From Thermodesulfobacteriaceae bacterium (GTDB lineage: Bacteria; Desulfobacterota; Thermodesulfobacteria; Thermodesulfobacteriales; Thermodesulfatatoraceae), in the NCBI GenBank assembly GCA_015494065.1, contig WGCA01000025.1:4396-68395 (forward strand): a stretch of 64,000 nt of DNA, given 5' to 3'. Shown here one piece after another: positions 10,557-30,714 of this stretch. Position numbers and translations under genes: made by a program. Each line of letters opens with the position of its first letter. The first letter of the stretch is position 1. The notes beneath the pieces are model-generated. The model was given only the letters and a program-made list of their open reading frames with translations, was not told the DNA's origin and searched no databases.

Positions 10557-13500
10557 CTAAAGCTTTACGATACGAGCACAAGCCGCTTTATATTCCGGCG
10601 TGTGAACTTCGGTGTCGATAGCCGGGCTGGTTATGAGGTTGGTAAGGGGGTCTTCAAAGTGAAAATCCATGAAGATAATACCCGGACTTACCCGGGTGGT
10701 AATGTGGGCCCGGGCGATTACTTCGCCCCGCGGGGTTATTACCTTCACCGGGTCGCGTTCCCGCACCTTTAATTTGCGCGCGTCCCGGGGGTTAATCTCT
10801 ACGAGCTCCTCCGGGAGATATTCCATTAGCCCTTCTACCCTTCTGGTCATAGAACCGCAGTTGTAATGCGGTAGTCTACGGCCGGTAATAAGCATAAAAG
10901 GAAAATCTACATCCGTCTTGTCCTGAGGACCCCAGTATTTGGGTATGGCAAAAGAGGCCTTACCCGAGTCTCTGGAAAAACGCTCAGTGAACATGAGCTC
11001 CGTGCCAGGGTGTTCTTCATGGGGCACCGGCCAGCAGATGCCTTTTTCAGCTAGGCGGTCATAAGTGAGCCCGGCAAAACTTGGCATAATCCGCCGCATT
11101 TCCTCGAAAATATCCTCAGCATTGCTATAGGCCATTTCGTAGCCCATGCGGCTGGCAATCTCTGCGATTATCTTCCAATCTGGCAGCGCTTCTCCGGGTG
11201 GTTCGACCAGTTTCCGGATCCGCTGCACCCTCCGTTCCCCGTTGTCCGTGGTCCCGTCTTTTTCAAAAAGACAGGCCGCCGGTAAGATCACGTGGGCAAA
11301 ATCTGCCGTCTTGGGCCGGAAAATGTCCTGGACCACCAAGAAATCTAGCCTTGAGAGCGCCTCATGGACCCGCTTCAGGTTGCCGTGGGTCATGGCCACG
11401 TCGTAACCAATGACGTAAAGGGCCTTGACACGCCCCTCTATGGCCTCCCTGTACATCATGGTTTCGGTAAGGCCGGGGCGCTCCGGTAAAGGCCGCCCCC
11501 AAAAGTCCTCAAATTTCTTCCGGACCAGGGGATCAGCCATCTTTTGGTATGCAGGCAGCGTGTAAGGCAGGGCCCCCATATCACAGGCCCCCTGAACGTT
11601 ATTTTGGCCCCGCAGCGGCATCGCCCCGGTCCCAGGTCGGCCTACGTGGCCACAAAGGAGGGCCAGATTGGCAATAGCCATGGCCCCTTGGCTGCCACTG
11701 CGGTGTTCAGTGACCCCAAGCCCCCAGAAAATAAGGGCCCTTTCAGCCCGCGCGTACATCCGGGCCAGCTGGATGATATGTTCCCGCCTGATCCCGGTTA
11801 TGCGTTCCACCCGCTCAAGGGGCCACTCTGAAAGGATATAATTGGCGTAAGCCTCAAAATTTTCCGTGCGTTTTTCTATAAATTCCCGGTTATATAAACC
11901 TTCCTTGAGGATGACGTGTGCCAGACCATTGGCCAAGGGCACGTTGGTGCCCGGCTTCAAGGGGAGCCAGAAGAGGGCCTTTTCCGCCAGCTCTGTCCTG
12001 CGTGGATCGATGACCACCAGCTTAAGCCCCTTCTTTAAGGCCTTCAGTATCCGCGCCCCTATGACCGGGTGGGCTTCGGTGGTATTGGCCCCCCAGAGGA
12101 CCAGAAGTTCCGTGCGCTCCAGCTCGTCAAAAGGCCCCGTAGCTGCGCCTGAACCAAAGGTGGCCGCAAGCCCTGCGACCGAAGGGGCATGTCAGACTCG
12201 GGCCGGGTTATCCACGTTATGGGTCCCAATCACGGCCCGGGCGAATTTTTGGGCCAGATAGGTATCCTCGTTGGTGGTCCTGGCCGAACAAAGGACCCCA
12301 ATGGCATCAGGCCCGTATTTATCCTTGATACGGGTAAGCCGTTCGGCCACGAAATCGAAGGCCTCGGACCAGCTGACCTCACGAAAGGCTTCGTCCCGAG
12401 AAAACCTGATAAGGGGTCTTTTTAGTCGGTCAGGATGACGGTAAAAGGTGTAGCCAAAGCGACCTTTAACACAAAGTTCTCCGTAATTGGGTGGGGTTTG
12501 CGCCGGTACGACCTCAAGGATACTGCCGTTTTTGACCCGGGCCAGCAGGTTACAGCCGGTACCACAGTAAGGACACACCGTCCTTATCTCCCGGGCCTCT
12601 TTGAGGGTGTAAGGGACGCTTTGGTCTTTTTTGGTCAAAGCCCCGGTGGGACAGACGTCTACGCAGGCACCACAGGAGACACAGTCTTCGGTAAAAGAAA
12701 AATGTATTTCTTCATCCGGTGTCCCCTGGGCGTAAATGGTTAGTTCAATCCCGCCGTAGTTACAGACTCTTACGCACCGGTAACAACCAACGCACTTGTT
12801 TGAATCTACCTCTATGAAAAGATGATCCGTAGCCAGCTTATATTTAGAACGTTTACGCCCTTTGGTGGCGGCCACGTTTTCTGCTATTAGGAGCTCACGA
12901 AACTGGCATTTGTGAAGGCCCAAACAGCCACATTTAAGACAGCGAGCGGCCTCTTTTTGCGCCTGCTCCACCGTAAATGTAGCCACCACTTCGGAGAAAT
13001 TGCGCTGGCGCACTTCCAGGGGAAGCTCAGCCGGCCTTTCCCGGGGCTGAGTAGGAAACTCCGCGTAAAAATCAACGTCCATCTCCTCCATCCGCCGGCC
13101 GCGGTTAAAATCAAACTTGACGCTAACTGTTACCTTTTCCGCCTTCTGCCCCACGAGGTAACGGTGGATATCTTCCGCAGCCCGTCTGGCGGAAGCCACC
13201 GCCTGAATAACCGTCTTGGGTCCGGTGGCAAAATCTCCTCCGGCCCAGACCCCGGCCACGTTGGTGGCACCGGTAGCGGAAGAAACCTTGATTATCCCGC
13301 CCCGGTGGGTGGCCAACTTGGCCTCAAGTTCACCGTAAGAGGAAAAATCAGTGTCCGGCTCTTCCCCCCAGGCCTTGACTACCAGGTCAAATTCGTAGAG
13401 TTGTTCTGTACCCTCCACCGGCACTACTTTCCTACCTTTGGCCTTATCCGGTTCCGAAAGCCGTGTTCTGGCGATTACCACCCGGTAATTCCCGTTGTTA

Positions 13501-14645
13501 AGTTCTATCTTGAGGGGAAGCGCCATTAAAAAGAGTTTGACCCCTTCCTTTTCAGCTTCCGAAATCTCCCTTTGCGGGGCCGGCATCTCCATGCGGGACC
13601 TGGGATAGACCAGGGTTACCTCCGCCCCCAGACGCAGGAGAGAGCGCGCCACGTCCACCGCGGTGTAACCCCCTCCCATAACCAGCACTTTGCGCCCGAC
13701 TTCAGGCCTTTCTCCCTCCTGAAGTCTGTAGAGGAGTTCGAGCCCGGAAACCGCCTTTTCTTCCCCTGGCACCTCGTGGTCCCGGCACCGGGCAGCGCCC
13801 ACCGCAAGAAATACGGCCTCAAAGCCCTGATCAAAGAGATCTTTGAGGGTGAAGTCTTTCCCCCAGCGTTTTCCCGGCTTAAAAGTTATGCCCAAATCGA
13901 GGATCCCCTGAATTTCCCGTCGCAAGATATCTTTCGAAAGCTTGAAATCGGGAATAGCCCAGCGGGGCATACCCCCGGGTTCTGAACGAGCCTCAAAAAT
14001 GGTCACCTCATGGCCTTTAAGACGCAGATAATAAGCAGCGGTGAGCCCGGCAGGCCCCGCCCCCACGATGGCCACCTTTTTGCCGGTGGATGGCGCCACT
14101 TCCGGGCGGTAACCGTGTTCAAGCCCCCAATCCGCCACAAAACGCTTGAGATCATTGATGGCTACCGGTACGTCCACTAGGGCCCTACGGCAACGGGGCT
14201 CACAGAAACGTGGACACACCCTACCTACCAGCGCCGGCAACGGCAATTTTTCTTTAATCAAATCAAGGGCCGCCCGAAATTCGCCCCGCGCGATAAAGGC
14301 AATGTACCCCTGAATATTGAGTCCCCCCGGGCAGGGGACACTGCAGGGGGCCTTACAGTCACCGAAGTGGTTCGCCACCAGGCTCTCTAACTTGGCGCGC
14401 CTGGCCTTTTTGACCGCCTCAGTATCGGTAAAGACCTTAAGCCCTTCCTGAACCGGGGTGGCACAAGCCCTTAAGAGACCTTTGCCTTCCACCTCCACCA
14501 GGCACATCCCGCAGGGGACCGGCGGCTCAGAAACCCCCGGCATATAACAGAGGGTGGGGACTTCCACCCCGTTTTCCCGCAAAACCTCAAGGACCGTTTG
14601 GCCTTCCCTTGCGGTTACTTCTTGGCCATTGACCCAGATTTTCAT
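10557..14645 (-). CDS. fdhA: Selenocysteine-containing formate dehydrogenase catalytic subunit fused to a [2Fe-2S] and GltD/SfrB-like FAD-NAD(P)H module (1362 aa including U818)
   Basis: Track ORFs 12192..14645 and 10557..12017 are in the same frame (4089 nt = 1363 codons). The 174 nt between them has no stop. The junction reads NVDNPARV-TGA-HAPSVAGLAATFGSG, the conserved Cys/Sec-His active site. Domains seen: Fer2 (LCYMPG..CGMC), GltD (VAIVGAGPAGLTAAYYL), 2x CxxCxxCxxxC, CPYCGTGC and the molybdopterin domains. Confidence 0.85.
12162..12180 (-). promoter_or_regulatory. SECIS-like hairpin downstream of the fdhA UGA
   Basis: Minus strand: UGA, 11 nt, then GGUCGCA-GGGCU-UGCGGCC (7-bp stem, 5-nt loop). 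The 11-nt spacing matches the E. coli fdhF SECIS upper stem as I recall it. Confidence 0.55.
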
Positions 14646-14663
14646 GACCCCTCCCGGCGGAAA

Positions 14664-14693
14664 TCATAAAAATGGGGGCTTATGCCCCCATTT
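14664..14693 (-). terminator. Rho-independent terminator/attenuator between acsE and fdhA
   Basis: Minus strand AAUGGGGGC-AUAA-GCCCCCAUU followed by UUUUAU. The fdhA RBS GGGAGGGG lies downstream. Confidence 0.6.
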
Positions 14694-14715: not shown

Positions 14716-15612
14716 CTAGAGTTCAAGCCAGGATTCAGAAAAGATGGTCTTCCCGAGCAGGACCCGGGCGGTCTTATAGATCTCGAGTTCTTTAGGGGAA
14801 AGAGTCTTGGGATCCGGCTCGTCTCCGTCCATGATATCGTGGACCAGCTTCACCCAGTCAGGGTGCTTGCCTTTGGCGATCTCGACCAGTTCTTGGTCAT
14901 AGACGTTTAAAATGGCGGAATAAATCCCGTATTTCATAAGCATCATGAGGTAGACCCGGTCTAAATAGGGACGCAGGTGCTTGGGAACGCCGTTAGAAAC
15001 GTTAGAAAGACCAATGGTGCTTTTGGCCCCGGGGGCGATATCCTGGAGCATGGCCAGAAATTCCAACCCGGCCAAAATCTGTTCCGCCCCCAGGGTAATA
15101 GGGGTAGCGATCGGGTCGATCCAGATCTTTTCGTTGGGGATACCGGCCTCGTTCAAGGCCATCACCAGATCCACCGCCATGGCCGCCCGCTCGTTGGCGT
15201 CCCGCGGCATCCCCTCAGGCCCCCACAAAAGGGCCACCACGTCACAGCCGGTCTCCGCAGCCACCGGGATCAATTTTTCCATCCTTTCGGGCTGGGCCGA
15301 AATGGAGTTCATCAAAACGGCACTGGGGTCTTTGGCGGCTTTGATCCCGGCGATCATAGCTTCAGGGTTGGTGGTATCCAAAGATATAGGGGTATCCACC
15401 ACTTCCTGGACCGTCTTTACGATCCAGGCCGCCAGCTCCGGTCCGTCCTTCTTGGCGGGACCGATATTGAGATCCAAATAATCAGCCCCGAGCTCCGTTT
15501 CTTCTTTGGCCATCTTCTGAATAGGCTCGGGGTTCCTTTCTTTCATAGCCGGCCCGATGGTCTTAGACATAATATTGATGGACTCTGCTATACAAACCAC
15601 CTTGTCACTCAT
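14716..15612 (-). CDS. acsE: Methyl-THF:corrinoid/iron-sulfur protein methyltransferase
   Basis: Pterin-binding-domain protein: ESINIMSKTIGPAMKERN...GADYLDLNIGP...ISLDTTN. Located in the acs cluster. Confidence 0.9.
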   Translation of the reverse strand: MSDKVVCIAESINIMSKTIGPAMKERNPEPIQKMAKEETELGADYLDLNIGPAKKDGPELAAWIVKTVQEVVDTPISLDTTNPEAMIAGIKAAKDPSAVLMNSISAQPERMEKLIPVAAETGCDVVALLWGPEGMPRDANERAAMAVDLVMALNEAGIPNEKIWIDPIATPITLGAEQILAGLEFLAMLQDIAPGAKSTIGLSNVSNGVPKHLRPYLDRVYLMMLMKYGIYSAILNVYDQELVEIAKGKHPDWVKLVHDIMDGDEPDPKTLSPKELEIYKTARVLLGKTIFSESWLEL

Positions 15613-15643
15613 TTAACCCCCTCCTAGACTTTATTTCTTGCCT

Positions 15644-16996
15644 CTAGGCCGCCTTCCATTCCTTTAAAAAGGAGGGCAACCCACTGGCTTCACGCGGACC
15701 GATGATGATCTCCCAGTCCGGCAACTCTTCTTCAAGCTCCCCTTTGATGGAAGCCAGGTATCCCGGAATAATGAGTTTGCGGTGCTTGACCTTTTCCGCG
15801 ATACCGCTCTTTTTGACAAACTCAGCGATGGTGTCTGCGCCAAACTTACCTGCCGCCCAGGCCGTGAGCACGGAAAGGCCTTCGGTGTCTTTGATCAAAA
15901 GCCAGGTAGGGACCCGGCTCCCTTCAATTTCACCGGACACGATAAAATAAGTGAGGGCAAAATTGCAAGTAATACAAACAGGGGAGTTTTCATCCGGCCC
16001 GTTGATGGGATAAATGCCCTCTTCCACCACCAAAGGCCGCTGCGGGTCGGTAAATATATTCATCCGCTCCACCATGAGCGGATAAAGGAGGTCCCCGCGG
16101 AAATCTGAGAGGATGATCATCCCGGCGTATTTGGCCACCAAGACCGAGGCGATCATGTACTCCACCACGATGTTTTCAGTATACCGGTAGGGAAAAGTAA
16201 TACTCGGGAACCCAAAGGGCTTAAACCGCTTTTTGATGGCCGCCCGGCGCATAATCACCTGGTCTTCATAAAGCTCCCGTACCCCGCGTGGGCTCGTGTC
16301 CAAGACGAGATCTTTTAAACCCTCCTTCATCAGCTCCTCGGAGATGCGGGCCGTCTCCGCCAGGGAATCCCCTTTAACCGCCAGGGGAAAACCCGTCTCT
16401 TTCGCCAGGGCCGCCATCTCCTTGTAATTGTCCATGGTGGCTGCGTAAAGCAGGGCCTTGTGCTCCCCACACTCCTTAGCCCCGGCTGCCAGGACGTCTT
16501 TCTTATCACTCATAAGTACCAGGACCGCCTCCGGGGCCTTCTCCCGCACGGTTTTCACCAAAGAGGCAAAGGTTTCCGGTTCCCCTTTGGTGTCTTCTAT
16601 CGCGATCACCTCTGGTTCAAGTTTGACCCCTACCCTCTCCCAGCGAAATTTCTTAAATTTGGCCAGGCGATCCTCCACTTCAGCCCCGTCCATCTCGGTG
16701 GAAAGGCGCAGGCCTATGCCCGGGGGGTGCTCAAAGCGTTTTTCGTGGCGAAAAAGGACCGTCTCCCCGCCTATTTCAAGGATGTGGTCTCCGCTGCCCA
16801 GTTTCACCGTCCGGATGGGCGGAGCCGAGGCCTCCGCGATCTTTTCCTTGGCTTCCTCAGAGACGTAAGGACAGGCCCCGATATCCGCCTGCCCTGCCGC
16901 CACCTTCATAGCAAAGGCTAGACACGTGGGAAACCCGCATTCTTTACAGTTCTTCTTAGGGAGCATCCCTAGGATTTGAATTCCCGTAAGACCCAT
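15644..16996 (-). CDS. acsC: Corrinoid iron-sulfur protein large subunit
   Basis: N-terminal [4Fe-4S] motif CKECGFPTCLAFAMKV...GACP followed by TIM-barrel and B12-binding regions. 450 aa. Confidence 0.9.
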   Translation of the reverse strand: MGLTGIQILGMLPKKNCKECGFPTCLAFAMKVAAGQADIGACPYVSEEAKEKIAEASAPPIRTVKLGSGDHILEIGGETVLFRHEKRFEHPPGIGLRLSTEMDGAEVEDRLAKFKKFRWERVGVKLEPEVIAIEDTKGEPETFASLVKTVREKAPEAVLVLMSDKKDVLAAGAKECGEHKALLYAATMDNYKEMAALAKETGFPLAVKGDSLAETARISEELMKEGLKDLVLDTSPRGVRELYEDQVIMRRAAIKKRFKPFGFPSITFPYRYTENIVVEYMIASVLVAKYAGMIILSDFRGDLLYPLMVERMNIFTDPQRPLVVEEGIYPINGPDENSPVCITCNFALTYFIVSGEIEGSRVPTWLLIKDTEGLSVLTAWAAGKFGADTIAEFVKKSGIAEKVKHRKLIIPGYLASIKGELEEELPDWEIIIGPREASGLPSFLKEWKAA

Positions 16997-17029
16997 CGCT
17001 TTACCCCTTTTCCGACTTTGTTCTTACCG

Positions 17030-19252
17030 CTACATGAGCGGCGGAAGTTCTTTCACCGGGTGATTCACCTTCTCAATCCACTCCCGCACTTCATCTTCCG
17101 TATTGGCCACGGTTTCGTCAGCAATTTTGTCTATCAGGTCCGGGACCCCCAGTTCTTCCGCCCGAGCCTTGAGCTTATCCTTCAACTCTTCCTTCAACAT
17201 CTTGGGCATCCACACCACCCGCTTGAGGCCCCCCTCGGCCAGGAGGAACTTCCGCGAGGTGATGTAATGCTTGGAGACCCCCATAAACCCCGGGGTCACC
17301 TGCCCACCACCTACCATACCCGCCATAGTGGTGAACTTCATTCCCGTAGGCGTAAGGCCCAGGTAGTCACGGTTGACGATCATGATCCCGTTACAGGTGG
17401 GAAGTACCGCCGCGATACACTCAAAGCAACCGCAGGCGGTCATGGGGTCTACCAGGATACTGTAAAGACTTACCCGCTCCACCTTACCCCGGGAGGCCTG
17501 TTTTACAAACTCATTAATCCCCGTAAACTGGCCGAGGGTCTCGTCTATCACTTCCCCTTTTTCGATGGGCTGGTTAGGCCCGGTGGGGTTGATCTCATAA
17601 CAGGCCTTACCGTCAAGCCAGTTGTACGCTCCGCACATCCCTATCCGCTCAGGGGTGATGACGCAGACGTGGCTTGGGGCAAAGCTCTGACAGAGGGTGC
17701 AGGAATAATAAACGTCTACCTGTTCGTCGGTAAGCCCCGCAATCCGGGCGTCTCGGCGGGCGTATACTTCTTTGGCCAGCTCCAGGATCTCCTTGACCTT
17801 ATCTTCTTCGGTGTAAATGGTCACCTGACACTTATCCACGATGGCGCCAAATTCCTGCCGCAGTTTGGCGTAGAGGATCTCCCCGATATGGCGGAAGAGG
17901 AAGCCCTTTTCCACCGCCGCCTTACTGATCCGAAGCCACATGATGTTGCGCTGACCCACGTGCATGATCCCCTGGGCGTAGTTGATCAGATGGTGGAACT
18001 GCCGCTCAAGGATGGCCTCGAAGTCTTCCTGCATATTGGCCCCCGCCACTTCTACCACCACGGCGAAAGGGAGCCGGTAAGGAGGCCCTTCAAGCCCCAG
18101 TTTTTCCACTTCGTTAATCTCCGGCCCGATAACCTGGATCTTACCGTCTTCTACCTCGTCCAAGGGTTTAGAAAGCAGGAGCTCCACCGCCGGGGTCCGG
18201 CCACCTCCACACTCAAGGTAGAGATCATCCTTGCGCACCCGCTCTCCCTCAAAAGCCGGGGCGTAAGCCACCGGGATGTTGAGTTTGACCGCGGTGACTT
18301 TAAGCCCTCGCACCTCAAGGGCCCGGTCTACCATCTCGTCGTAAGGAACTTTGGAAACTACGTGCTCGTAGGTACACACCCCAAAGGGCTTGATTTCCGG
18401 AATATCCCAGTCAGAAATGGTGGGAAAGCCCCAGTTAATGGCCCCCGCCGCGTTGGCGTACCACTCGTCGGAAACCGGCCCGAAGGCCAAAACGAAGGCA
18501 AAAGTCCGGTCCTTATTGTAGAGGAGATTGCCCATATAATCGCCAGGCTTTATGCCACCAAAGGCCATGGCCACCCGGCAAGCAAAACCGATGGCAAAAA
18601 CCACCGAGGAGGTATCCGGCCCAAAGGGGATCAGACGGGTAGGCCAGCCTAGCTGGACCCCAAGTTCTTTGAGTTGCTCCGCCATCCGCACCCCGTTGGT
18701 GTCCGAGTGCATGAAGACGTAGAGGTTTTTCTCAAGGAGCTCCTGGGCAATCTTTTGCGCGATCTCTTTTTCCGGCGGGGCCCCTAAACAGGCGGCAAAA
18801 CCAGGGGCCGTGCCGTCCACGAACTCCACCCCTCTTTTCCGGAAGATCACGTCGTCAGCCGCCCCGAGCCAGATGTTGCCGTTTACCGGCTCCTCAGTCT
18901 TGGTGTAAAAATCAGGGTCTTCTAGGTAGCGGATGGCCTCGATAATCTCTTCGGCAAAGAAGGTAGCCATCCCCGCGTCCAGGGCCGGCCCCAGGTAGGG
19001 CAGCCACAGGTGTTCTGAAGGCTCAGGGGGTAGTAATTTCTTGGCCTCCTGCAAGACTTCTTCACAATCCCCCAGCTTTTTCACCGGGTAGCCGAGCATG
19101 GCGTAGATAATGGGGAGATAATAGGCGGTGTTCGGGAACCCTATCTCCTGGTCCTTACCGAACTTCTTAACAGCCTCTTCGTATTTTTCTAACGCCTGCT
19201 CGACGATTTTGTGCGCTCCCCTGATAGCGGCACTGGCAATAATCTTTGACAT
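17030..19252 (-). CDS. acsB: Acetyl-CoA synthase (A-cluster subunit)
   Basis: 740 aa from the ATG at 19252 (GGAGGAAACCGG precedes it). Begins MSKIIASAAIRGAHK.... Shows the A-cluster Cys region SCTLCQSFAPSHVCVITPERIGMCGA and CGCFE. Confidence 0.93.
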   Translation of the reverse strand: MSKIIASAAIRGAHKIVEQALEKYEEAVKKFGKDQEIGFPNTAYYLPIIYAMLGYPVKKLGDCEEVLQEAKKLLPPEPSEHLWLPYLGPALDAGMATFFAEEIIEAIRYLEDPDFYTKTEEPVNGNIWLGAADDVIFRKRGVEFVDGTAPGFAACLGAPPEKEIAQKIAQELLEKNLYVFMHSDTNGVRMAEQLKELGVQLGWPTRLIPFGPDTSSVVFAIGFACRVAMAFGGIKPGDYMGNLLYNKDRTFAFVLAFGPVSDEWYANAAGAINWGFPTISDWDIPEIKPFGVCTYEHVVSKVPYDEMVDRALEVRGLKVTAVKLNIPVAYAPAFEGERVRKDDLYLECGGGRTPAVELLLSKPLDEVEDGKIQVIGPEINEVEKLGLEGPPYRLPFAVVVEVAGANMQEDFEAILERQFHHLINYAQGIMHVGQRNIMWLRISKAAVEKGFLFRHIGEILYAKLRQEFGAIVDKCQVTIYTEEDKVKEILELAKEVYARRDARIAGLTDEQVDVYYSCTLCQSFAPSHVCVITPERIGMCGAYNWLDGKACYEINPTGPNQPIEKGEVIDETLGQFTGINEFVKQASRGKVERVSLYSILVDPMTACGCFECIAAVLPTCNGIMIVNRDYLGLTPTGMKFTTMAGMVGGGQVTPGFMGVSKHYITSRKFLLAEGGLKRVVWMPKMLKEELKDKLKARAEELGVPDLIDKIADETVANTEDEVREWIEKVNHPVKELPPLM

Positions 19253-19277
19253 CCGGTTTCCTCCTTTAATTACAAAC

Positions 19278-21914
19278 TTATTGGGCCATAAGGCCATCGA
19301 TGACCCTTTTGGTCACCTCGATGGCCTTGGGGTGTCTCATGATCAAGAAGTCTCCCCCGGCCAAGAGCAGAGCCAGGGCGGTAATCGCTTCCAGGGCTAT
19401 TCCCCGAACTTCCTGGTCCCCCAGCATGTCATCGCTCGGAAGCCCTGCCTCTTTGGTCTTCCACACCTCACGCCCCACGTTTATTACGAAGGGCACCTGA
19501 AGCTTTTCGTCCTGAGCGTAAAGAGCCGCAAGTCTTATCCGTTCCATCACGGAATAAGTATATTCTAAACCGTAACCCAGCGCTCCCACCGAAGGGTCCA
19601 TGGCGATCTTATCTAGCGGGACCCCTACGTTTTCAAGCAGGATATTGAGCTGTTTGGCCAGGTTAACGTCAATGGGGCTTGAGGCAATGAGGGAATAGCC
19701 GTAACCCATGGCCGTGGCCCCCAGGGCCCGGTGGTTGGTATCCACTACCGGCCCGATCATGACGTTTTTGGCCCCAAGCACGTTGGCCACCTCACGCAAA
19801 ACCTCTACGTCCTTTTCCGCCGAACCAGAACCCCAGATCACCAAGGGCACATCCACCGCCTTGGCCACCTTTTCCACTACTTTGGCCGCATGCTCCGGGC
19901 CGAGATCGAGAAAATTCGGGTCCGTACCAACCAGGTAGACGTTTATGGCCTCCGCCCCGTAAACCTCAACACACTTCTTGGCCCAGGCCCCCGGATCATC
20001 AAACACATCGGCAAAATATTTGGCCAGCGCCTCCGGCCAATCCTCAGGCTTGACGTCCAAGACCTCCATGGCCACGTGGGGCGGATTCTTCATCTCGCCC
20101 TCAAAGAGGTGGAAGGGGAGTACGTTAGTGCCACCGATGGTGATGGCCTTTTCCCCCTCTCCGATGGTGACTTCTCGGATATAGGCCGTCCCAGGTTCTT
20201 TATAAACGTCTTCGGGTATGCCAGCGGCCCTTTCAGAGACCGGACGGTATTCCTTGGAAAGTTCGGCAAAGACCAAAATATCGGCCACTTCCGGGGCCTT
20301 AACCTCCGCCGCTGGCCTTTCCTCAACCGCAGGCTTTTCTTCTTCCGGTTTCTTTTCCGCCCGGGCCGCCTTTAATTCTTTGACCTTTTCAAGCCCCTTT
20401 ACCGCCTCCGTCTTCTGCGGATAGAGCTCCAAGACCTTCTGGTAAGCCGCTTCGGCCCCGTCCAGGTCTTCTTCTTTAAGTTTTTTCTCAGCTTCTTTCA
20501 GTAACTCCTCAACCAAACGTTCTTTTTCGATCTCAGCTAAGGCACTTTTAGCGATTTCGTTTTCTGCCTCGAGCTCAAGGACTTGACGGTAAAGGGCCTC
20601 GGCTTTGGCAAGCTCTCCCGCCTCCCGGGCCGCCTTGGCGGCAGAGAGGAGATCGGCCACCTTCTGAGCCCGCTCTTCCTCCTCTTTGGAGACCGCCGGG
20701 GCTTCGGGTTTGACCACCGGCCTTTCCTCTGGCTTTATCTCAGGCGGTACCGGCCTCTCAGCGGGCCCTCCCAGCAAGGCCCGTTCAAGGCTCGCCAGAC
20801 CTTCATGGAGGAGGTTGATGCCGTCCCTTAAGGCCTCCATACTGCTGCGTAGGGACCCGAAGATCTCCTTCAGGGCCTCAGCCGGCACCTCCACCTTAGG
20901 CGGGGCCTCAGGGACCTCTTCTTCCACCTCCGGTCTTTCGGGAATAATCTCTGGTGCCGGCCGCGGTACCTCGACCTTTACCTCCTCTGCTAGAGGCCGC
21001 GGGTGGAGGCCCGCCCGTTTTACGATCTCAGGCACCGCCTCTTCCCACTCGATGGCCATAATGTGTACCCCGGCAATACCAGGGATCTCCCGCACCTGCT
21101 CGATGATCTCCACGGCGATCTGGATTCCCTCTTCCCTTTTGTCCTTGGCGTCCTTGAGTCGTTTTAAAATCTCATCAGGCACATCCAGTCCGGGGACAAA
21201 ATATTTCATGTAGCGGGCCATCCCGAAGGACTTGGGCGGGGTGATCCCTGCCAGGATATAGACCTTCTCGGTAAGGCCGAGGTCTCTTGCCATCTCCATA
21301 AATTTGCGGAACCGCTCAAGGTTATAAACGATCTGGGTCTGGATAAATTGGGCCCCTGCCGCCACTTTCTTGGCCAGCCGGTGTACCCGAAACTCAAAGG
21401 GATCCGCAAAGGGGTTGGCCGCCGCCCCCAAGAAAAATTCCACGGTCTTTCCCTTTATCTCTTCCCCGCACTGGAACCTCTTCTCATCCCGCATCCGCCG
21501 GACCATGTCCAGCAGCTGGATGGAATCCAGGTCAAAAACCCCTTTGGCCTCGGGATGATTACCAAACTTTTGGTGGTCCCCCGTAAGGCAAAGGAGGTTT
21601 TTGATCCCCAACGCCGCCGCGCCTAAGAGATCAGCCTGAATAGCAATCCGGTTCCGGTCCCGACAGGTCATCTGGATGACCGGCTCCACCCCTTCCTGCA
21701 TCACCAAAACCCCAGAAGCAATGGAAGACATCCTTACGATGGCCGTCTGACAATCGGTGATATTGGCGGCGTCCACAAAGCCCCGGATCAAGCGGGCCTT
21801 CTGACGGACTACGTCGCCGTCGGCACTCTTGGGTGGACCAATCTCACAGGTAACGGCAAAGTGCCCCTCACGAAGCACCCTTTCCAGATGGCTGCGATAT
21901 TTTTCGTTACTCAC
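19278..21914 (-). CDS. metF/acsD: Fusion protein: methylene-THF reductase (MetF, aa 1-~305) + ~264-aa Pro/Glu/Lys-rich and helical linker + corrinoid Fe-S protein small subunit (AcsD, aa ~570-878)
   Basis: One uninterrupted 878-aa ORF with a GTG start after GGAGG. The MetF part has TCEIGPPK, QMTCRDRN, LCLTGDH, FIQTQIVYN. The AcsD part has IREVTIGEGEKAITIGGTNVLPFHLFEG, VPLVIWGSGSAEKD, MDPSVGALGYGLEYTYS. Confidence 0.85.
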   Translation of the reverse strand: MSNEKYRSHLERVLREGHFAVTCEIGPPKSADGDVVRQKARLIRGFVDAANITDCQTAIVRMSSIASGVLVMQEGVEPVIQMTCRDRNRIAIQADLLGAAALGIKNLLCLTGDHQKFGNHPEAKGVFDLDSIQLLDMVRRMRDEKRFQCGEEIKGKTVEFFLGAAANPFADPFEFRVHRLAKKVAAGAQFIQTQIVYNLERFRKFMEMARDLGLTEKVYILAGITPPKSFGMARYMKYFVPGLDVPDEILKRLKDAKDKREEGIQIAVEIIEQVREIPGIAGVHIMAIEWEEAVPEIVKRAGLHPRPLAEEVKVEVPRPAPEIIPERPEVEEEVPEAPPKVEVPAEALKEIFGSLRSSMEALRDGINLLHEGLASLERALLGGPAERPVPPEIKPEERPVVKPEAPAVSKEEEERAQKVADLLSAAKAAREAGELAKAEALYRQVLELEAENEIAKSALAEIEKERLVEELLKEAEKKLKEEDLDGAEAAYQKVLELYPQKTEAVKGLEKVKELKAARAEKKPEEEKPAVEERPAAEVKAPEVADILVFAELSKEYRPVSERAAGIPEDVYKEPGTAYIREVTIGEGEKAITIGGTNVLPFHLFEGEMKNPPHVAMEVLDVKPEDWPEALAKYFADVFDDPGAWAKKCVEVYGAEAINVYLVGTDPNFLDLGPEHAAKVVEKVAKAVDVPLVIWGSGSAEKDVEVLREVANVLGAKNVMIGPVVDTNHRALGATAMGYGYSLIASSPIDVNLAKQLNILLENVGVPLDKIAMDPSVGALGYGLEYTYSVMERIRLAALYAQDEKLQVPFVINVGREVWKTKEAGLPSDDMLGDQEVRGIALEAITALALLLAGGDFLIMRHPKAIEVTKRVIDGLMAQ

Positions 21915-21941
21915 CTCTTCCTCCTCAAGCCGCCGTTTTAT

Positions 21942-22622
21942 CTATTTTTGCGAATTCATCTGTAGATCAGGCCTCTTACGCTCCCGCGGGCCACCATGGC
22001 CAGCCGGGATCCAGTTTTTGGCCGGAAAAATCTGGGAAAGCTTTTCCAGCTCCCCGCGGGCCTTAAGCCGCTCGTAAATCTGGTGCCATACACAGGGCAC
22101 CTCCGGCCTGATCTCACACTTTCCGTTCTGGGAACCCCCGCAAGGCCCATTCAAAAGATTCTTGGCACAGCGGGCGATGGGACAGAGTCCTCCGGTGAAA
22201 TCGATGATGCAATCCCCACAGCCCCGACACTTCTCTTCCCATTCCCCTAAAGCAGGGTTGGCCCCGTAAAAACTGGTATCCACCCCGGGATAGATCTTTA
22301 AATCCGGAAAAAGATCAGCCGCCAGATTAACCCCCACTCCGCAGGCCAGGGACACCACCGCTTCTACCTTTTCCTTGAGTTCCCCAAGCGGGGTCAGATA
22401 TTCCGGATCACACTGCCGCACAAAGGTGTCCTCAACGGTTTTAAGTGGGCGTCCTTGCCTTTTACGCGCCAGCCGCAAGGCCGCCGCCAAAATCTCCACC
22501 TCGCGGTCCCCACCCGCGGAACAAATGGCCACGCAGCCCCGGCAACCAATGACGGCGATGCGTTCAAAGGGCTCTATCATCTGAAGGATTCTCTTAATGG
22601 GTTTTCTTTCTGCAATGATCAT
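21942..22622 (-). CDS. metV: Methylene-THF reductase small Fe-S/Zn subunit MetV
   Basis: 226 aa, Cys-rich: VIGCRGCVAICSAGG, CRGCGDCIIDFTGGLCPIARC, NGPCGG. Immediately upstream of metF. Confidence 0.8.
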   Translation of the reverse strand: MIIAERKPIKRILQMIEPFERIAVIGCRGCVAICSAGGDREVEILAAALRLARKRQGRPLKTVEDTFVRQCDPEYLTPLGELKEKVEAVVSLACGVGVNLAADLFPDLKIYPGVDTSFYGANPALGEWEEKCRGCGDCIIDFTGGLCPIARCAKNLLNGPCGGSQNGKCEIRPEVPCVWHQIYERLKARGELEKLSQIFPAKNWIPAGHGGPRERKRPDLQMNSQK

Positions 22623-23014
22623 GAGGAAGTCTCCCCTTTTGCCGAAATCTCAAGCAAGGTTTCAAAGGTCCTCTTGGCCGCCTCCACCAAGGCCCCTGTA
22701 TCAAGACGGGGGACAAAGGCCATCTGTACCCGCTCAGGCGAAAGCCCAATCTCCTCAAGGATTTTCCGGGCCGCCTCTACCCTCTTTTCTGCCCGCAGAC
22801 TGCCGGTGTTGTTATGACAGCTTCCCTTCTCGCAACCCGCCACCAGCACCGCCCCGGCGTCTTCCTCCAAGGCCCGTAAAATGTCTACCACCTCGATCCG
22901 CCCGGAGCAGGGAAACCGCTTAATCACCACCTCTGCGGGGATGTCCGCTACGTCCTGAGCGGTGGCCTCGTTGGTATAATGGCAACAGAGAATAGCTAAC
23001 TTTAGCTGAGACAT
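22619..23014 (-). CDS. mvhD: MvhD/FlpD-family protein (Cys form)
   Basis: 131 aa: ILCCHYT...FPCSGRIEVVDILRALEEDAGAVLVAGCEKGSCHNNTG. Confidence 0.8.
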   Translation of the reverse strand: MSQLKLAILCCHYTNEATAQDVADIPAEVVIKRFPCSGRIEVVDILRALEEDAGAVLVAGCEKGSCHNNTGSLRAEKRVEAARKILEEIGLSPERVQMAFVPRLDTGALVEAAKRTFETLLEISAKGETSS

Positions 23015-23019
23015 CTACC

Positions 23020-23577
23020 CTACCCCCCTACCACCATGACCGCCATTTCAGGCGCGGTTTTCAGTTCGATAGCCCGGGCGGGACATTCCACCACGCAAAT
23101 CCCACAGGCCTGACACTTTTCAGGATCGATTACGGCGTAACCCTCTGAAACAATGCGCGGTGCCCCGAAGGGGCAGGTGCGCACACAGGTAAGACAAGCG
23201 ATACACTTACCCGCCTCCACCCGGGCCAAACGCCCGGTTTCAAAGCGCAGTTCAAGGGCCCGGGCCGGATCTTCCTGCGCAACCAGGCCTTTGAGCGCCT
23301 TAATCACTTCCATGGGTTTTACGTCCATGGGACAGACCGGCACACAGGAGCCACAGCCGGAACATTTCCAGATGGTGTCTCCGGCAAGCAACCGCTCCTT
23401 AAGCCCCAATAAAACCCCGTGCACTATGACCCGGGGGTCAAAATCTTCGGCCACTTTTTCTACCGGGCACACCCCGGAGCAGGCCCCACAACGGAAACAC
23501 TGGGCCAGCGTCTCAGGGGCCCCGGTGTTTATCAATTCCCCCGCCAGATGGGGATCGCGACCCTTAAGCTCTATCAT
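23020..23577 (-). CDS. Iron-sulfur protein: HdrC-like N-terminal half fused to a 2x[4Fe-4S] ferredoxin half
   Basis: CFRCGACSGVCP...CSGCGSCVPVCP (HdrC-like spacing), then CIACLTCVRTCP...CQACGICVVECP. Confidence 0.7.
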   Translation of the reverse strand: MIELKGRDPHLAGELINTGAPETLAQCFRCGACSGVCPVEKVAEDFDPRVIVHGVLLGLKERLLAGDTIWKCSGCGSCVPVCPMDVKPMEVIKALKGLVAQEDPARALELRFETGRLARVEAGKCIACLTCVRTCPFGAPRIVSEGYAVIDPEKCQACGICVVECPARAIELKTAPEMAVMVVGG

Positions 23578-23580
23578 CTC

Positions 23581-24339
23581 CTACTCCTTTGCCTTGGGTT
23601 GCCAAAGCTTTCCCTGTTTTTCCACCTGCCCTCTTTTGGAAAGAGCCTCCAAAATAGGCACGATATCTTCCTGGGTTGCCCCTGTTTTTTGAAGCAACGT
23701 CTCAATAGAGACGGGCCCCTTGCCCAAGAGGGCCTTGACCTCGGCCTCAAGAAGTTCTTTTTTGATAAGGGGCACGAGCTTTTCCTCCACCCGCCGGGAT
23801 ATACCTTCGGGACTGTAATCACCGGCCCTTTTTAATTCCCGGGCTAAGTTCCCGTAAGCCGCCCGGAAACGACTTTTAGCGGTAAGCTGGCGTGCTGCCG
23901 CAAGCCGCAGCTTGATCGTCTCCCAATCAAGCCCTTCCGGCTCGCCGAGGGGGCCGAGCTTTTTGATGGTCTCCGTAAAGTCCGTGACGATCTTTACAAA
24001 AAGCGGGGCCTCCGCCGCAGAGGCCCAGTCAATCCGGAAACGCTCCACCTTCAAACCTACTAACTCCAGGATCCTCCTGGTTACCTCCGCCATCAAAAGG
24101 GCTTCGTAATTACCAGACTGGTAATGACACTCGCCCAGATGTCACCCCCCAACCAGCACTCCGTCCGCACCGACGTAAAAGGCCTCCAGGATAAAACGTG
24201 GATCAATACGGCCCGTACACATCACCCGAATGACCCGGTTGTTGGGGGGATACTGGTAACGGGCCACCCCCGCCGAATCCGCCGCTGCGTAACAGCACCA
24301 GTGACAAAAAAAGCTCAAAATCTTGGGCTCAAAACTCAT
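23581..24339 (-). CDS. mvhD: Selenocysteine-containing MvhD/FlpD-family protein with a C-terminal winged-helix-like extension (252 aa including U66)
   Basis: Track ORFs 24142..24339 and 23581..24096 are in frame (759 nt). The junction is [31 protein letters not shown], where the paralog has AGCEKGSCHN. The tail [36 protein letters not shown] looks like a wHTH. Confidence 0.8.
24109..24125 (-). promoter_or_regulatory. SECIS-like hairpin downstream of the mvhD UGA
   Basis: Minus strand: UGA, 16 nt, then AUUACC-AGUCU-GGUAAU (perfect inverted repeat ATTACCAGTCTGGTAAT). Confidence 0.45.
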
Positions 24340-24351
24340 AAACCCACCCCT

Positions 24352-27300
24352 TTAAGCCGCTTCTTCACCGGCTTTTTCTTTTTCAAGTTCTTTTTCCACA
24401 AAGGCCCCGAAGGCTTCTATCTGCGCCAAAATGGCCTCATCTGTGAAACCACCCATGCTGATGGCCAACACCGGACAGTGGGAGGCACAGATACCACAAC
24501 CTTTACACGATGCAGTAATCGTCTGGGCCTTTTTGCGTTTACCTACCTTGACCATCTCTATCGCCCCAAAGGGGCAAAGCTCGGCGCAGATGCCGCAGCC
24601 GATGCACTTCTTCTGATCCACCCGGGAGACAATGGGCGCCACTTCCACAAACCCTTTGGCCAAGGGGATCGCGGCCTTGGCCGCCGCCGCCCGGGCCTGA
24701 GCCAAGGTCTCGTCCAAGGGCTTTGGACCGTGGGCCAGCCCGCAGACGTAAACCCCTTCCACCGGGAGCTCAACCGGCATGAGTTTCACGTGCGCCTCAA
24801 GGAAAAAGCCGTCTCCCGTAAGTGGAGCCTTGATAACCTTTGAAAGCTCTTCGTTTTCTCCAGGCGCAATCCCCACCGAAAGGACTAGAAGATCGGCGGG
24901 AATCAGGAGTTCCTCTCCGAGCAGGGCGTCGTAAACCTTAACAAACTGGGCCTTGCCCTTTTGTACTAACTCCGGCTTGGCTTCCGGTTTATAGCGCAGA
25001 AAAATGACCCCGGAGTTGCGCGCCTCCCGGTAGGCGTCTTCGGAAAAACCGTAGGTGCGCATATCACGAAAGAGGATATAGACGTCCTTTTTGGGATATC
25101 TCTTCTTAATACGCAGGGCGTTTTTTACCGCCTGCTGACAGCAGAGCTTGCTGCAATAGTTTAAGTCGTCTCCCCGGGAACCCACACACTGGATCATCAC
25201 CACGCTACGGGCCCGGGCAAGCTTTCCGGCCTTGCCCTTAAGCTCCGCCTCAAGATCAAGCTGGGTGATAACCCGCTCGTTGGCCCCGAGGCCATAACGG
25301 TCCGGCCGGTGCTCTCTTCCACCGGTAGCCAGAATCACCACCCCGTGGTTAATCACCTCCGAGCCCTCTTCCTTCCTCAAAGTGGAGGTGAAATTTCCTA
25401 CGTAACCCGAAACGTTTTCCACCGTGGTGCCAGTAAAGACCTTTATCCTGGGGTGCTCTTCCACCTTGGTGATCAGGTCCTTTAAGATTTTTTGTGGGTC
25501 TTCCCCGGAGAGAAGACCGGTGACCCGACGCAGGTTCCCCCCAAGCTCGGCCTCTTTTTCCACCAGATAGACCTCAAAGCCTTGCTCCGCCACCGAAAGG
25601 GCCGCCTGAAGCCCTGCCGCCCCTCCGCCAATTACCAGGGCCGAAGGGGTCACTGAAACCTTTTGGAGCTCAAGCGGGGTGAGCCGTTTGGCCTTGGCCA
25701 CCGCCATCCGTACTTGATCTTTGGCCTTCTGGGTGGCGGCTTCGGGATCCTCGGCGTGTACCCAGGCACACTGGTCCCGGATATTGGCCATCTCAATGAG
25801 GGCCGGGTTAAGCCCCGCCTCCCTCAAAGTCTCCTGAAAGAGGGGCTCATGGGTCCTGGGACTGCAGGCCGCGATCACCACGCGGTTAAGCCGATTTTCT
25901 TTTATCTTTTTGACCAGTTCGTTTAAGGTGTCCTGAGAACAGGAATATAAGACGTCTTCGGTATAGACCACTCCAGGCAGGGTCGCCGCGTAGCGGGCTA
26001 CCTCTTTGACATCCACCACGCCGGCAATATTCACCCCACAGTGACAGACAAAGACCCCGATCCTCGCTTCTTCCCTTTCAAGCTCTTCGTCTTCGGGCGG
26101 AAATTCCTTGTGGACCGCGTCTTGCCCCCTGACCTCGGCCAAAAGTTCCGAACATTTGGCCGCCACTCCTTGGGCTTGGACCACGCTTTCTGGAATATCC
26201 TTGGGCCCCTGGAAGGCTCCGGCCACAAAAATCCCGGGCACGTTGGTCTCAAGCGGGGTGGCCACTTTGGTCTGGGCAAAACCGTAGTGGTTAAGCTCAA
26301 CCCCCAGGCGTTTGGCGAGTTCTTCGGCCCCCGCCGGGGCGTCAAGCCCCACCGAAAGGACCACCATATCGTAAAAATCCCGGTGCGTTCTTCCGTCTTC
26401 GGTTACGTAAGTCAGGGCCAGCTTGCGCCCTACCTGATCCACCCTAGGCACCCGGGCGTAGATCGTCCGGAAACCATACTTTTCCACTGCCCGGTTAAAG
26501 GCCTCGTCAAAACCCTTGCCCTGAGTCCTGATATCCATGAAGAAAAGGTCTATCTCAGCCTCTGGTAGGTGCTCTTTCACCACCGAGGCCTCTTTCATGG
26601 CGTACATGCAGCAGACCGAAGAACAATAACCGTTGCCGCAAGTGACATCCCGGGAACCTACGCATTGGAGAAAGGCGATGCGTTGGGGATGAGTAAAATC
26701 AGAGGGCCTTAGCACTTCCCCTTCCGTAGGCCCAGAGGCACAGGTCATCCTTTCCAGCTCAAGGCTGGTAAGGACGTCCGGGTACTTGCCGTAGCCGTAT
26801 TTCTCCAAGACTTCCTCCGGCACCCGGCCAAAGCCCAAGGCCAAAACCACCGCCCCCACGTGAAGCTCCCTCTCTTCCGGCTGCTGATCAAAAAAGATGG
26901 CGTTTGGCCCGCACACGTTGGCGCAGAGCTGGCAGCTCTCATGCTGAAGCCTCAAGCACTCTTTTTCGTCAAGGTAGTAAACCGTAGGGACAGCCTGGGC
27001 GTAATCTATCCGGGCCGCCTTGGTGAAGGTGAGACGCTCGTTATACTCGTCCACCACCTCTTTAGGACAATAGGTCATGCACATCCCACAGGAAGTACAC
27101 TTGTTTGGGTCTACGTAACGGGGTTTGACGTGAATTTTGGCCTTGAAATTACCCGGCTTGCCGGATAACTCCTTGAGCTCGGCCAAGGTTATAATCTCAA
27201 TATTGGGAGACCGACCGGCCTCCACCAGCTTGGGGGCCAGGATTCAGATACTACAATCGTTAGTGGGAAAAGTCTTATCGAGCTGGGCCATCACGCCCCC

Positions 27301-27423: not shown

Positions 27424-27457
27424 TTAACACCTCTTCCCGAGATTTTGCGCCATTTTA

Positions 27458-27469
27458 TTGGAATTCCAA
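27458..27469. promoter_or_regulatory. Perfect 12-bp palindrome TTGGAATTCCAA between cooS and hdrA
   Basis: Read directly. It sits 35 nt upstream of the hdrA ATG and downstream of a GGGGCC-N4-GGCCCC hairpin (27480-27495). Confidence 0.3.
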
Positions 27470-27500
27470 CCGGAGTAAAGGGGCCCGAAGGCCCCTTCCC

Positions 27501-29546: not shown

Positions 29547-29560
29547 GAAAGAGCCTCCTA

Positions 29561-30708: not shown

Positions 30709-30714
30709 GTCTTT

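Follow-up and report, generated by a model that had tools for sequence, protein, structure and literature searches.

The locus considered here raises the question of whether two open reading frames of 817 and 486 codons, found in the 64,000-nucleotide stretch of Thermodesulfobacteriaceae DNA that we analysed (the window), encode two subunits or one polypeptide, and what such a polypeptide would do. The initial annotation joined them into a selenocysteine (Sec) formate dehydrogenase (FDH), and its coordinates for the fused gene proved correct, the strand being minus, as it is for all features described below. A single frame extends over 14645..10557 (ATG at 14645, TAG stop at 10557-10559), interrupted by one TGA, and full-length orthologs of its product exist. 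Translated with TGA as U, it yields 1362 residues (817 + 1 + 58 + 486), of which U818 (12192-12194) is the sole non-standard codon; the plus-strand translation of the span has stops throughout. The stop-free stretch quoted earlier (HAPSVAGLAATFGSG...VVIDP) occurs in this translation as written, and so do the two dinucleotide motifs, VAIVGAGPAGLTAAYYL and VLVMGGGYTAVDVA. A Shine-Dalgarno-like GGGAGGGG (14648..14655), read directly from the sequence, lies 2 nt 5' of the ATG. The TGA is not an assembly error, since the identical 201 bases occur in two vent-metagenome runs, 25 orthologous loci have TGA at the same codon, and 14 database clusters terminate exactly at ...NPARV.

The position of this codon had been predicted to be the catalytic one, and the alignments bear this out: it falls in ARV-U-HAPS, directly before the catalytic His819, and its counterpart is the Cys in both Rhodobacter capsulatus FdsA (ARVCHSP) and HDCR FdhF (ARLCHAP). 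Besides the 25 TGA loci, two carry a cysteine codon (TGT in L017, TGC in L034), the only Cys forms verified at the nucleotide level, and these orthologs, which occur in the same synteny, have an uninterrupted frame. Eleven nucleotides downstream of the UGA, a SECIS hairpin (GGUCGCA-GGGCU-UGCGGCC; 12162..12180) forms a 7-bp helix that covaries strongly in 23 orthologs, with 98.1% of cells paired, compensatory double changes at five of the seven pairs, and a covariation score of 0.70 compared with 0.24 for shuffles (0/500 reach 0.70) and at most 0.16 for slid controls. RNAalifold recovers the same helix, and a separate hairpin scan also picks up the hairpin. The Rfam model SECIS_3 matches 12139-12197 over its full length with 26.4 bits, below the gathering score of 63, and a 71-nt stretch folded as a single sequence is no more stable than its shuffles (z 0.16). 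The loop reads GGGCU in this gene and GGUCU in the family consensus. The decoding machinery sought in the genome is all present, with profile matches to selA (638 bits), selB (383 bits) and selD (389 bits) and a tRNA-SeC(tca) on contig C21. Taken from the sequence, UGA818 would be a selenocysteine codon dependent on SelB and the SECIS. The selD gene of this genome itself holds one TGA.

The encoded chain consists of a NuoG-type [2Fe-2S] domain, a GltD/SfrB-like FeS-FAD-NAD(P)H module, a linker Cys cluster, a 2x[4Fe-4S] domain and a complete FdhA, in this order. The [2Fe-2S] domain (aa 3-75; 14421..14639; Pfam Fer2_4), with Cys33/45/48/61, aligns with residues 27-125 of FdsA and 6-106 of Sporomusa ovata StnC. 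The adjoining GltD/NfnB/SfrB-like module (aa 74-486; 13188..14426) is recognised by Pfam, NCBIfam and alignments, and comprises Fer4_20 (aa 74-177; PF14691, 73 bits), with HxxxCxxxCxxxCP at 93-106 and CPxxCExxC at 144-152, and Pyr_redox_2 (aa 189-486; PF07992, 123 bits). Both domains are intact by Pfam and motifs, as the initial annotation held, and on alignment the FAD motif (GxGxxG, GAGPAG at 195-200) and the NAD(P)H motif (GGGxxA, GGGYTA at 324-329) match those of StnC and 9bov_A. PRK12814, a 657-aa NCBIfam model that we take to represent the SfrB type, matches aa 3-630 with 571 bits, under its cut-off of 916; the flavin module is a relative of the free-standing PRK12814 protein and not its equivalog. 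After the second Rossmann strand, where an Arg pair would indicate specificity for NADPH over NADH, this clade has VYPRSR; the corresponding sequence is YRRT in StnC and 9bov_A and YRRSR in the rest of the family. With YPRSR in place of the YRR of StnC and most other relatives, a preference for NADPH over NADH is uncertain. A probable extra [4Fe-4S] site follows in the linker (CLKCGCLGLHKC, aa 569-580; 12906..12941), aligned to 'clecgc' of StnC and 9bov_A, a Cys motif described in PMC7483475, and Pfam and Cys motifs then delimit a dicluster 2x[4Fe-4S] ferredoxin domain (aa 610-671; 12633..12818).

The catalytic part is complete. Its MopB N-terminal [4Fe-4S] domain (Molybdop_Fe4S4, aa 686-734; 12444..12590) contains CPYCGTGC...CVK with the conserved Lys, and C691xxC694xxxC698...C725-V-K727 is conserved relative to FdsA and FdhF. 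Next come the molybdopterin (Mo/W-bisPGD) catalytic domains (aa 740-1165; 11151..12428; PF00384, 273 bits), where Arg1012 in LRGQNNVQG (11610-11612) aligns with the catalytic Arg of FdsA and HDCR FdhF and is equivalent to FdhH Arg333, and the Molydop_binding domain (aa 1250-1354; 10584..10898; PF01568, 89 bits). With 838 bits, the match to the Fdh-alpha model TIGR01591 exceeds the curated equivalog cut-off of 666.25, and it pairs residues 689-1359 with positions 1-672 of the model's 672. The genome encodes the maturation factor FdhD (contig C40, 217 bits) and just one further FDH, the Tat-exported periplasmic FdnG; the fused enzyme is the only cytoplasmic FDH. The NuoF-type domain Complex1_51K (PF01512) is absent from this 99.9%-complete genome and present in 9 of 14 control genomes.

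What kind of enzyme does this architecture resemble? Among solved structures, the NAD-dependent FDH FdsABG of R. capsulatus (PDB 6TG9; 691 bits, query residues 609-1359) matches the catalytic part best, and the FdsA N-terminus carries a [2Fe-2S] domain homologous to query 3-102. FdsA, however, is a Cys enzyme receiving electrons from NuoEF-like FdsBG (FMN/NADH), whereas the fused FDH has Sec and no NuoEF in its genome, and the ~45-residue connector of FdsA is replaced by a GltD-like flavoprotein of about 500 residues. The Moorella thermoacetica NADP-FDH FdhAB (Moth_2312-2314, EC 1.17.1.10), with electron input through an FeS/NADP-binding protein (PMC5736913), is by its description likewise a cytoplasmic, Sec-containing, CO2-reducing enzyme of the Wood-Ljungdahl pathway; it is set apart, again by description, by having separate alpha and beta subunits in place of one uninterrupted frame. 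The described NADPH oxidoreductase SfrAB of Geobacter sulfurreducens shows the same order of parts, SfrB-type ([2Fe-2S] + GltD-like) and then SfrA-type (MopB-like), in two subunits instead of a single chain, its SfrA being NuoG-like and weakly FDH-like (PMC7483475). The N-terminal part finds structural counterparts in StnC (8oh5_C), aligned over query 3-866 with a whole-protein E of 5.5e-186, and in the related chain 9bov_A (1178 aa), aligned over query 3-1025. Both share with the fused FDH the N-terminal [2Fe-2S] domain, the GltD-like FAD/NADPH module inserted into a NuoG/FdhF-like scaffold, and the Cys motifs, and of the structures considered StnC (PDB 8OH5/8OH9) is the best one on which to model the electron path.

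Likeness to StnC also suggests another nature for this protein, that of a non-catalytic StnC/NfnC/SfrA-like scaffold, misannotated as an FDH, which would oxidise NADPH as the GltD::NuoG-like subunit of a transhydrogenase or some other oxidoreductase. The close resemblance of the N-terminal ~680 residues to StnC and 9bov_A speaks for it, as do the history of StnC, which carried an FDH annotation yet has no formate activity (PMC7483475), and the presence of StnC-like fusions in the same phylum. [quoted passage not shown] StnC performs bifurcating transhydrogenation and requires NuoEF-like StnAB, whereas this genome has no StnB/NuoF-type partner; the fused FDH also passes TIGR01591 and, despite the cost, maintains a Sec codon together with its covarying SECIS. 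We therefore rejected the inactive look-alike as very improbable. Still more improbable is a true stop at the TGA, in which case an 'FAD-dependent oxidoreductase' of 817 aa would assemble with a second subunit, a molybdopterin protein of 486 aa translated from its own start, as the present annotation of close relatives implies. Public gene calls in Thermosulfurimonas and Thermodesulfatator do terminate at this TGA, and a GTG start is available at 12017. Yet the 58 codons between TGA and GTG encode conserved FdhA sequence, the catalytic His included, and the 817-aa product would end one residue short of the metal ligand. Nor do the orthologs point to a separate downstream gene: they have either TGA with the covarying SECIS or a Cys codon through which the frame runs without interruption. 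The Sec machinery, moreover, is in the genome.

We consider it likely that the gene encodes one cytoplasmic Sec-containing Mo/W-bis-pyranopterin FDH acting as a CO2 reductase, in which a GltD/SfrB-type module is inserted between the [2Fe-2S] and ferredoxin domains of a NuoG/FdsA-type FdhA, and which feeds formate to Fhs. SelB would decode UGA818 as Sec with the help of the downstream hairpin. By homology to the StnC cryo-EM structure, electrons would pass from NAD(P)H to FAD, through the two GltD [4Fe-4S] clusters to the linker cluster, then into the ferredoxin domain with its 2x[4Fe-4S], and from there by way of the [4Fe-4S] cluster of MopB to the Mo/W site, where CO2 would be reduced to formate at Sec818/His819/Arg1012; Fhs of the same cluster would then use the formate. 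We infer not only this path but also the donor (NADPH or NADH), the physiological direction, the metal and the ability of the enzyme to act alone.

The predicted link to the Wood-Ljungdahl pathway is borne out by gene order. The fused fdh is the last gene of a 22-kb same-strand cluster from fhs to fdh, preceded by fhs, folD, cooS/acsA, an hdrA-like gene (24352-27225), mvhD with its own Sec codon (24142-24144), a ferredoxin gene, metV, metF::acsD, acsB, acsC and acsE (14716..32454). In 26 of 34 fused-FDH loci the FDH gene is immediately preceded by acsE/acsC; in T. indicus one inserted ORF separates them. The 70-nt acsE-fdh spacer contains a terminator-like hairpin with a T-run (14670..14693), a possible attenuator or processing site.

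Reduction of CO2 by NADPH is uphill at standard potentials, and the enzyme may therefore require a second donor; NADPH alone is a thermodynamically weak one. This favours an alternative in which the fused FDH is one arm of a larger flavin-based bifurcating or confurcating assembly whose CO2 reduction is driven by more than NAD(P)H, possible partners being the HdrA-like protein and Sec-MvhD, whose genes belong to this minus-strand cluster and lie ~9 kb upstream of fdh, or a ferredoxin docking at the [2Fe-2S] branch. An HdrA homolog directly adjoins the fused FDH in 4 of the 34 loci and in Desulfurivibrio dismutans, where coupling was proposed (PMC12142623). In StnC, the [2Fe-2S]/C3 branch leads out to the partner module, and all four [2Fe-2S] cysteines are retained here despite the absence of NuoF; together, the conserved domain and its partner-leading role in StnC hint at a second port. 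Nevertheless, hdrA-mvhD-fd adjoin metV-metF, a gene order associated with MetFV-Hdr-MvhD, the methylene-THF reductase of the Moorella type (cited in PMC7483475), and four acs genes separate them from fdh; the usual FDH neighbour is acsE and not hdrA, and the two-subunit Moorella homolog functions with NADPH alone (PMC5736913). We judge such an assembly to be unlikely, if clearly less so than the inactive scaffold or the true stop. A slightly more doubtful suggestion is that the [2Fe-2S] domain is the second port for a non-NuoEF partner (ferredoxin or HdrA-like/Sec-MvhD), the enzyme forming with its single chain the core of a CO2 reductase that bifurcates or confurcates electrons. Were this so, the second port would overcome the uphill step, and the fused FDH family would be the catalytically live form from which the C1/C2 'remnant' branch of StnC/NfnC derives.

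For the preferred single-chain CO2 reductase, the initial annotation implied rarity, which did not hold. A survey of 401 genomes of the phylum shows full-length fusions in about 40 of them (about 45 copies), mostly with Sec, and over 100 clusters of ~1360-aa single-chain proteins, 41-59% identical at 100% coverage, bear the name 'formate dehydrogenase subunit alpha'. The D. dismutans RS08735 'fused FdhAB', a single chain encoded with Wood-Ljungdahl genes and expressed in proteomes, has already been published, and the role proposed for it is likewise CO2 reduction dependent on NAD(P)H (PMC12142623); the searchable literature contains no report of a fused-family member being purified or assayed. 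Our finding is thus mainly an annotation correction within a design common in related bacteria and already described. What is new is that records of close relatives split the gene at the TGA, and that the C1/C2 cluster branch, described in StnC as a non-functional remnant (PDB 8OH5/8OH9), appears here to lead to an intact Sec active site, which places the Stn/Nfn-ABC structures in context. The fused enzyme would be the cytoplasmic FDH required by the Wood-Ljungdahl reconstruction of Thermodesulfatator and Thermosulfurimonas. Several public records for these genera divide the gene between an 'FAD-dependent oxidoreductase' and a molybdopterin fragment, so that a metabolic model relying on them would miss the first CO2-fixation step. 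The family is also predicted to supply a CO2 reductase that is compact, thermophilic, encoded by one gene and linked to NAD(P)H, and could be of interest for the biocatalytic conversion of CO2 to formate.

The D. dismutans protein, like the one described here, combines a molybdopterin FDH domain with NAD(P)H/FAD and ferredoxin domains in one polypeptide. The 'fused FdhAB' group comprises Desulfobulbales sulfur disproportionators and cable bacteria, and the homologs of Desulfurivibrio, Dissulfuribacter, Dissulfurirhabdus, Thiovibrio, Electrothrix and Electronema are 46-52% identical to our sequence over 100% of its length. Several features nevertheless distinguish them. The active-site residue is given as C in 103 of 107 full-length database homologs, whereas the present gene and most genomic copies in the phylum have Sec, and public annotation splits the Sec forms of the Thermodesulfatator/Thermosulfurimonas clade. 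In D. dismutans the gene is adjoined by hdrA/mvhD, in place of the acsE found here, and the NAD(P)H motif is YRRSR in the fused FdhAB homologs as opposed to YPRSR in this enzyme.

Read on the minus strand with TGA taken as selenocysteine, the interval 14645..10557 yields a single chain of 1362 residues in which the sole non-standard codon, U818, occupies 12192-12194 (...NPARV-U-HAPSVAGLAATFGSGAATGPFDELER). The frame comprises two minus-strand ORFs, of 817 aa (12192..14645) and 486 aa (10557..12017), with 58 sense codons separating the TGA from the GTG that opens the 486-aa ORF, and all of the peptide and motifs quoted in the initial annotation are found in its translation. A plus-strand reading of these coordinates was rejected, as it meets many stops and the gene lies on the minus strand. 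A ribosome-binding site (GGGAGGGG) stands 2 nt upstream of the start, the N-terminus (MKIWVNGQEV) is devoid of a signal peptide, and the stop is a TAG at 10557-10559, beyond which lies a convergent plus-strand gene with a palindromic hairpin in between.

The TGA is genuine and not an error, since an identical stretch of 201 bases is present in two hydrothermal-vent metagenome runs, 14 clusters of related proteins of 816-821 aa in the protein database all terminate at ...NPARV, and TGA occupies the same codon in 25 orthologous loci. The sequence was found in DNA metagenomes only, and none of the RNA runs searched contains it. Could translation simply stop at this codon, leaving the two ORFs as separate subunits? 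We reject this two-gene reading because the 58 codons that follow the TGA encode conserved FdhA sequence and the SECIS element within them covaries.

The decisive evidence for this element is comparative. The Rfam SECIS_3 model aligns over its full length to 12139-12197 (-), albeit with only 26.4 bits where the gathering score is 63, and was therefore used as a pointer only; the single-sequence MFE fold of the 71 nt after the TGA gives a different structure, about as stable as its shuffles (z 0.16), and so says nothing either way. A 7-bp hairpin, GGUCGCA-GGGCU-UGCGGCC (12180-12162), starts 11 nt past the UGA, and its arms read GGUCGCG/CGCGACC, GGUCAGC/GCUGGCC, UGUCAGC/GCUGGCA, GGUAGCC/GGCUGCC and GGUGGCC/GGCCAUC in orthologs. 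Across 23 aligned sequences 98.1% of the stem cells are paired, five of the seven pairs have changed on both sides, and the covariation score reaches 0.70 versus 0.24 in shuffles, none of 500 scoring as high. When the 3' arm is slid by 1-3 columns as a control, pairing falls to 26-58% and covariation does not exceed 0.16, and RNAalifold recovers the same helix without prior input. Several of these compensatory substitutions also change the amino acids (SVAGLA versus SVSGLL), and therefore it is the RNA pairing, not the protein, that is conserved. A search of the genome (2.03 Mb, 99.9% complete) recovered the selenocysteine machinery that the initial annotation had proposed to look for: selA (638 bits), selB (383 bits), selD (389 bits, with one in-frame TGA of its own) and a tRNA-SeC(tca) on contig C21. 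The single frame, its one TGA, the covarying hairpin and this machinery together bear out the claim that the two ORFs are one Sec-containing chain.

Comparable hairpins lie 11-16 nt after the UGA in other selenoprotein genes of the genome, namely FdnG (contig C36), SelD (contig C12) and MvhD (in the window). In SelD (C12:10071-10994, +) the in-frame TGA (…AAG-U-AAK…) is followed by CCACCAG-CGGAA-CUGGUGG, and in mvhD the UGA is followed by AUUACC-AGUCU-GGUAAU. The fdh loop (12166-12170) is GGGCU in the window, in its congener L019 and in L020, and GGUCU (mostly) or AGUCU in other orthologs, the differing base being the wobble position of a Gly codon. Two orthologs have a Cys codon instead: TGT at 8460 in L017, a locus of the same synteny, and TGC at 3960 in L034. 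A recent switch from Sec to Cys is suggested for the former, whose SECIS-like hairpin (GGUUGCA-GGUCU-UGCAACU) is still perfect; the latter has lost the hairpin, its 3' arm being gone.

Pfam and NCBIfam profiles place Fer2_4 (residues 3-75), Fer4_20 (74-177), Pyr_redox_2 (189-486), a 4Fe-4S dicluster (610-671), Molybdop_Fe4S4 (686-734), Molybdopterin (740-1165) and Molydop_binding (1250-1354) in succession, and thus detect in one chain all the [2Fe-2S], GltD-like flavoprotein, ferredoxin and molybdopterin domains that the initial annotation had assigned to it. TIGR01591 (Fdh-alpha) reaches 838 bits, above its cut-off of 666, and PRK12814, a 657-aa GltD-like model, scores 571 bits on residues 3-630, below its cut-off of 916. 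Every expected ligand motif was found on inspection: the [2Fe-2S] ligands Cys33, 45, 48 and 61, the GltD FeS domain motifs HFGDCKAPCSVPCP and CPRFCEPRC, intact FAD (GAGPAG) and NAD(P)H (GGGYTA) motifs in the GltD-like region, as had been claimed, the linker motif CLKCGCLGLHKC, two CxxCxxCxxxC motifs, the MopB [4Fe-4S] domain (CPYCGTGC...CVK) and the active-site RV-U-H and LRGQNNVQG. The NAD(P)H donor preference is uncertain, because the NAD(P)H motif reads VYPRSR in the window clade where StnC, the large subunit of Sporomusa ovata StnABC (8OH5), and many relatives have YRR. The best solved-structure match to residues 606-1359 is R. capsulatus FdsA (691 bits), residues 27-125 of which also align to residues 3-102. 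Since FdsA matches on both sides of the flavoprotein, the latter is, judging from these alignments, inserted into a NuoG/FdsA-type FdhA in place of a short connector and not simply appended.

A shared scaffold raises the possibility that the protein is of the StnC type. Both StnC and the related 1178-aa chain 9bov_A align from residue 3 onwards, and StnC, once annotated as a formate dehydrogenase, is devoid of formate activity (PMC7483475) and forms with the NuoEF-like StnAB module a bifurcating transhydrogenase (PMC7483475; PMC10482914). Opposite the ARV-U-HAPS of the query, however, the two chains show gaps or unrelated residues, and their matches stop near query residues 1184-1206, so that they are without a Molydop_binding domain. 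Members of the phylum also encode StnC-like fusions of ~1250 aa, whose ligand position reads DYPGSQSQ or GSFSNLMN and whose Arg motif reads PLYRYINAQG or ILRDFSNSQG. Two fusions of this length, L060 (G147:C68) and L061 (G001:C35), are 37-38% identical to the window protein over residues 2-1218 and 3-1196, and look like StnC/SfrA-type non-catalytic paralogs because Sec/Cys-His and the catalytic Arg are missing. The window protein keeps all catalytic features, and its whole genome has no Complex1_51K (NuoF/StnB/HydB) domain, which was found in 9 of 14 control genomes; on these grounds we reject a StnC-type reading of the protein.

As a template for the window protein, the StnC structure is still useful. 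Electrons in StnC follow the path FAD-C7-C6-C5-[2Fe-2S]-C3 to StnAB, while a side branch, C2/C1, heads to the dead FdhF-like domain and is considered by the authors a non-functional evolutionary remnant (PMC10482914). We infer the mapping of individual clusters between the two proteins, and on it the counterpart of the C2/C1 branch would end at the intact Sec/His/Arg site; the conserved [2Fe-2S] branch may be a second electron port.

The initial annotation was correct in its observation and largely right in its functional reading, but the rarity it implied for the one-chain form does not hold. Six-frame translations of 401 genomes from the phylum contain ~45 full-length copies, spread over ~40 genomes in many families (some 40 copies with exactly one TGA, five with none), and a protein database search returned >100 clusters of full-length homologs (1350-1400 aa, 41-59% identity), many named 'formate dehydrogenase subunit alpha', from sources including Dissulfuribacter, Dissulfurirhabdus, Thiovibrio, Desulfurivibrio, Electrothrix/Electronema, and Anaerolineae and Clostridiales MAGs. 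The architecture and proposed function of a 'fused FdhAB protein', expressed in proteomes and adjoining HdrA and MvhD, have been published for Desulfurivibrio dismutans (PMC12142623), and the counterpart that has been characterised is split, namely the two-subunit NADP-FDH of Moorella (PMC5736913). The design is thus common and already described, and the window fdh is one more member of it. The searched literature holds genome-based descriptions only, with no biochemical study of the fused enzyme found, and the fusion is not described in the D. autotrophicum, ANME, Nfn-review, Pelobacter, D. rimicarensis, Dissulfurirhabdus or cable-bacteria papers. To this picture our analysis adds quantitative SECIS covariation across the fused-FDH family, the exclusion of a StnC-type reading, including the absence of NuoF throughout the genome, the connection of a live active site to the 'remnant' branch of StnC, and the splitting of fdh in public annotation of the window clade.

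This splitting is evident in the nearest database relatives (69-97% identity), which are fragments of 816-821 aa; those with names are 'FAD-dependent oxidoreductase' or 'hypothetical protein' (Thermosulfurimonas, Thermodesulfatator), the closest ones bear none, and the closest named record is from a Thermodesulfatator atlanticus MAG (97-98% identity). In Thermosulfurimonas marina (CP042909.1, 6001-10101; locus L014) an 821-aa call stops at the TGA, a same-frame 865-aa call begins internally and passes through it, and the fusion is not annotated as a single protein. Because the 865-aa call crosses the TGA and overlaps the other, the pipeline presumably recognised a Sec FdhA and placed its start internally.

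The linkage to Wood-Ljungdahl genes proposed initially is confirmed by a 22-kb same-strand cluster (~10557-32454, -) that includes all steps of the pathway. Its minus-strand genes are, in transcription order, fhs (~30718-32454), folD (29608-30510), cooS/acsA (27501-29546), an hdrA-like gene (24352-27225), mvhD (~23581-24300), a ferredoxin gene (23020-23577), metV (21942-22622), a metF::acsD fusion (19278-21914), acsB (17030-19297), acsC (15644-16996), acsE (14716-15612) directly upstream of fdh, and fdh itself (10557-14645). Among 34 fused-FDH loci, acsE/acsC lie directly upstream in 26, and an HdrA homolog adjoins fdh in only four. The sole other formate dehydrogenase of the genome is a periplasmic Sec FdnG type (C36:~7180-9588, +) with a Tat signal (RRTFLK) and QARI-U-HSTTVAG; FdhD is also encoded.

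Several peculiarities accompany the cluster. The MvhD-like gene encodes a selenoprotein (…VLVGG-U-HLGECHY…, TGA at 24142-24144), of which the ORF list gives only the 171-aa C-terminal part. In the 878-aa fusion a long linker connects a MetF-like methylene-THF reductase domain (aa 10-302) to AcsD/CdhD (aa ~576-877), an arrangement (PF02219+PF03599) that is conserved in T. marina, T. indicus and MAG relatives. In a complete genome of the same genus (L062) acsE/acsC are upstream too, but a 547-aa ORF (10118-11758, -) lies between acsE and fdh. The 70-nt acsE-fdh spacer of the window has a terminator-like hairpin, AAAUGGGGGC-AUAA-GCCCCCAUUU, with a U-run (14670-14693, -), which could serve in attenuation or processing of the operon transcript.
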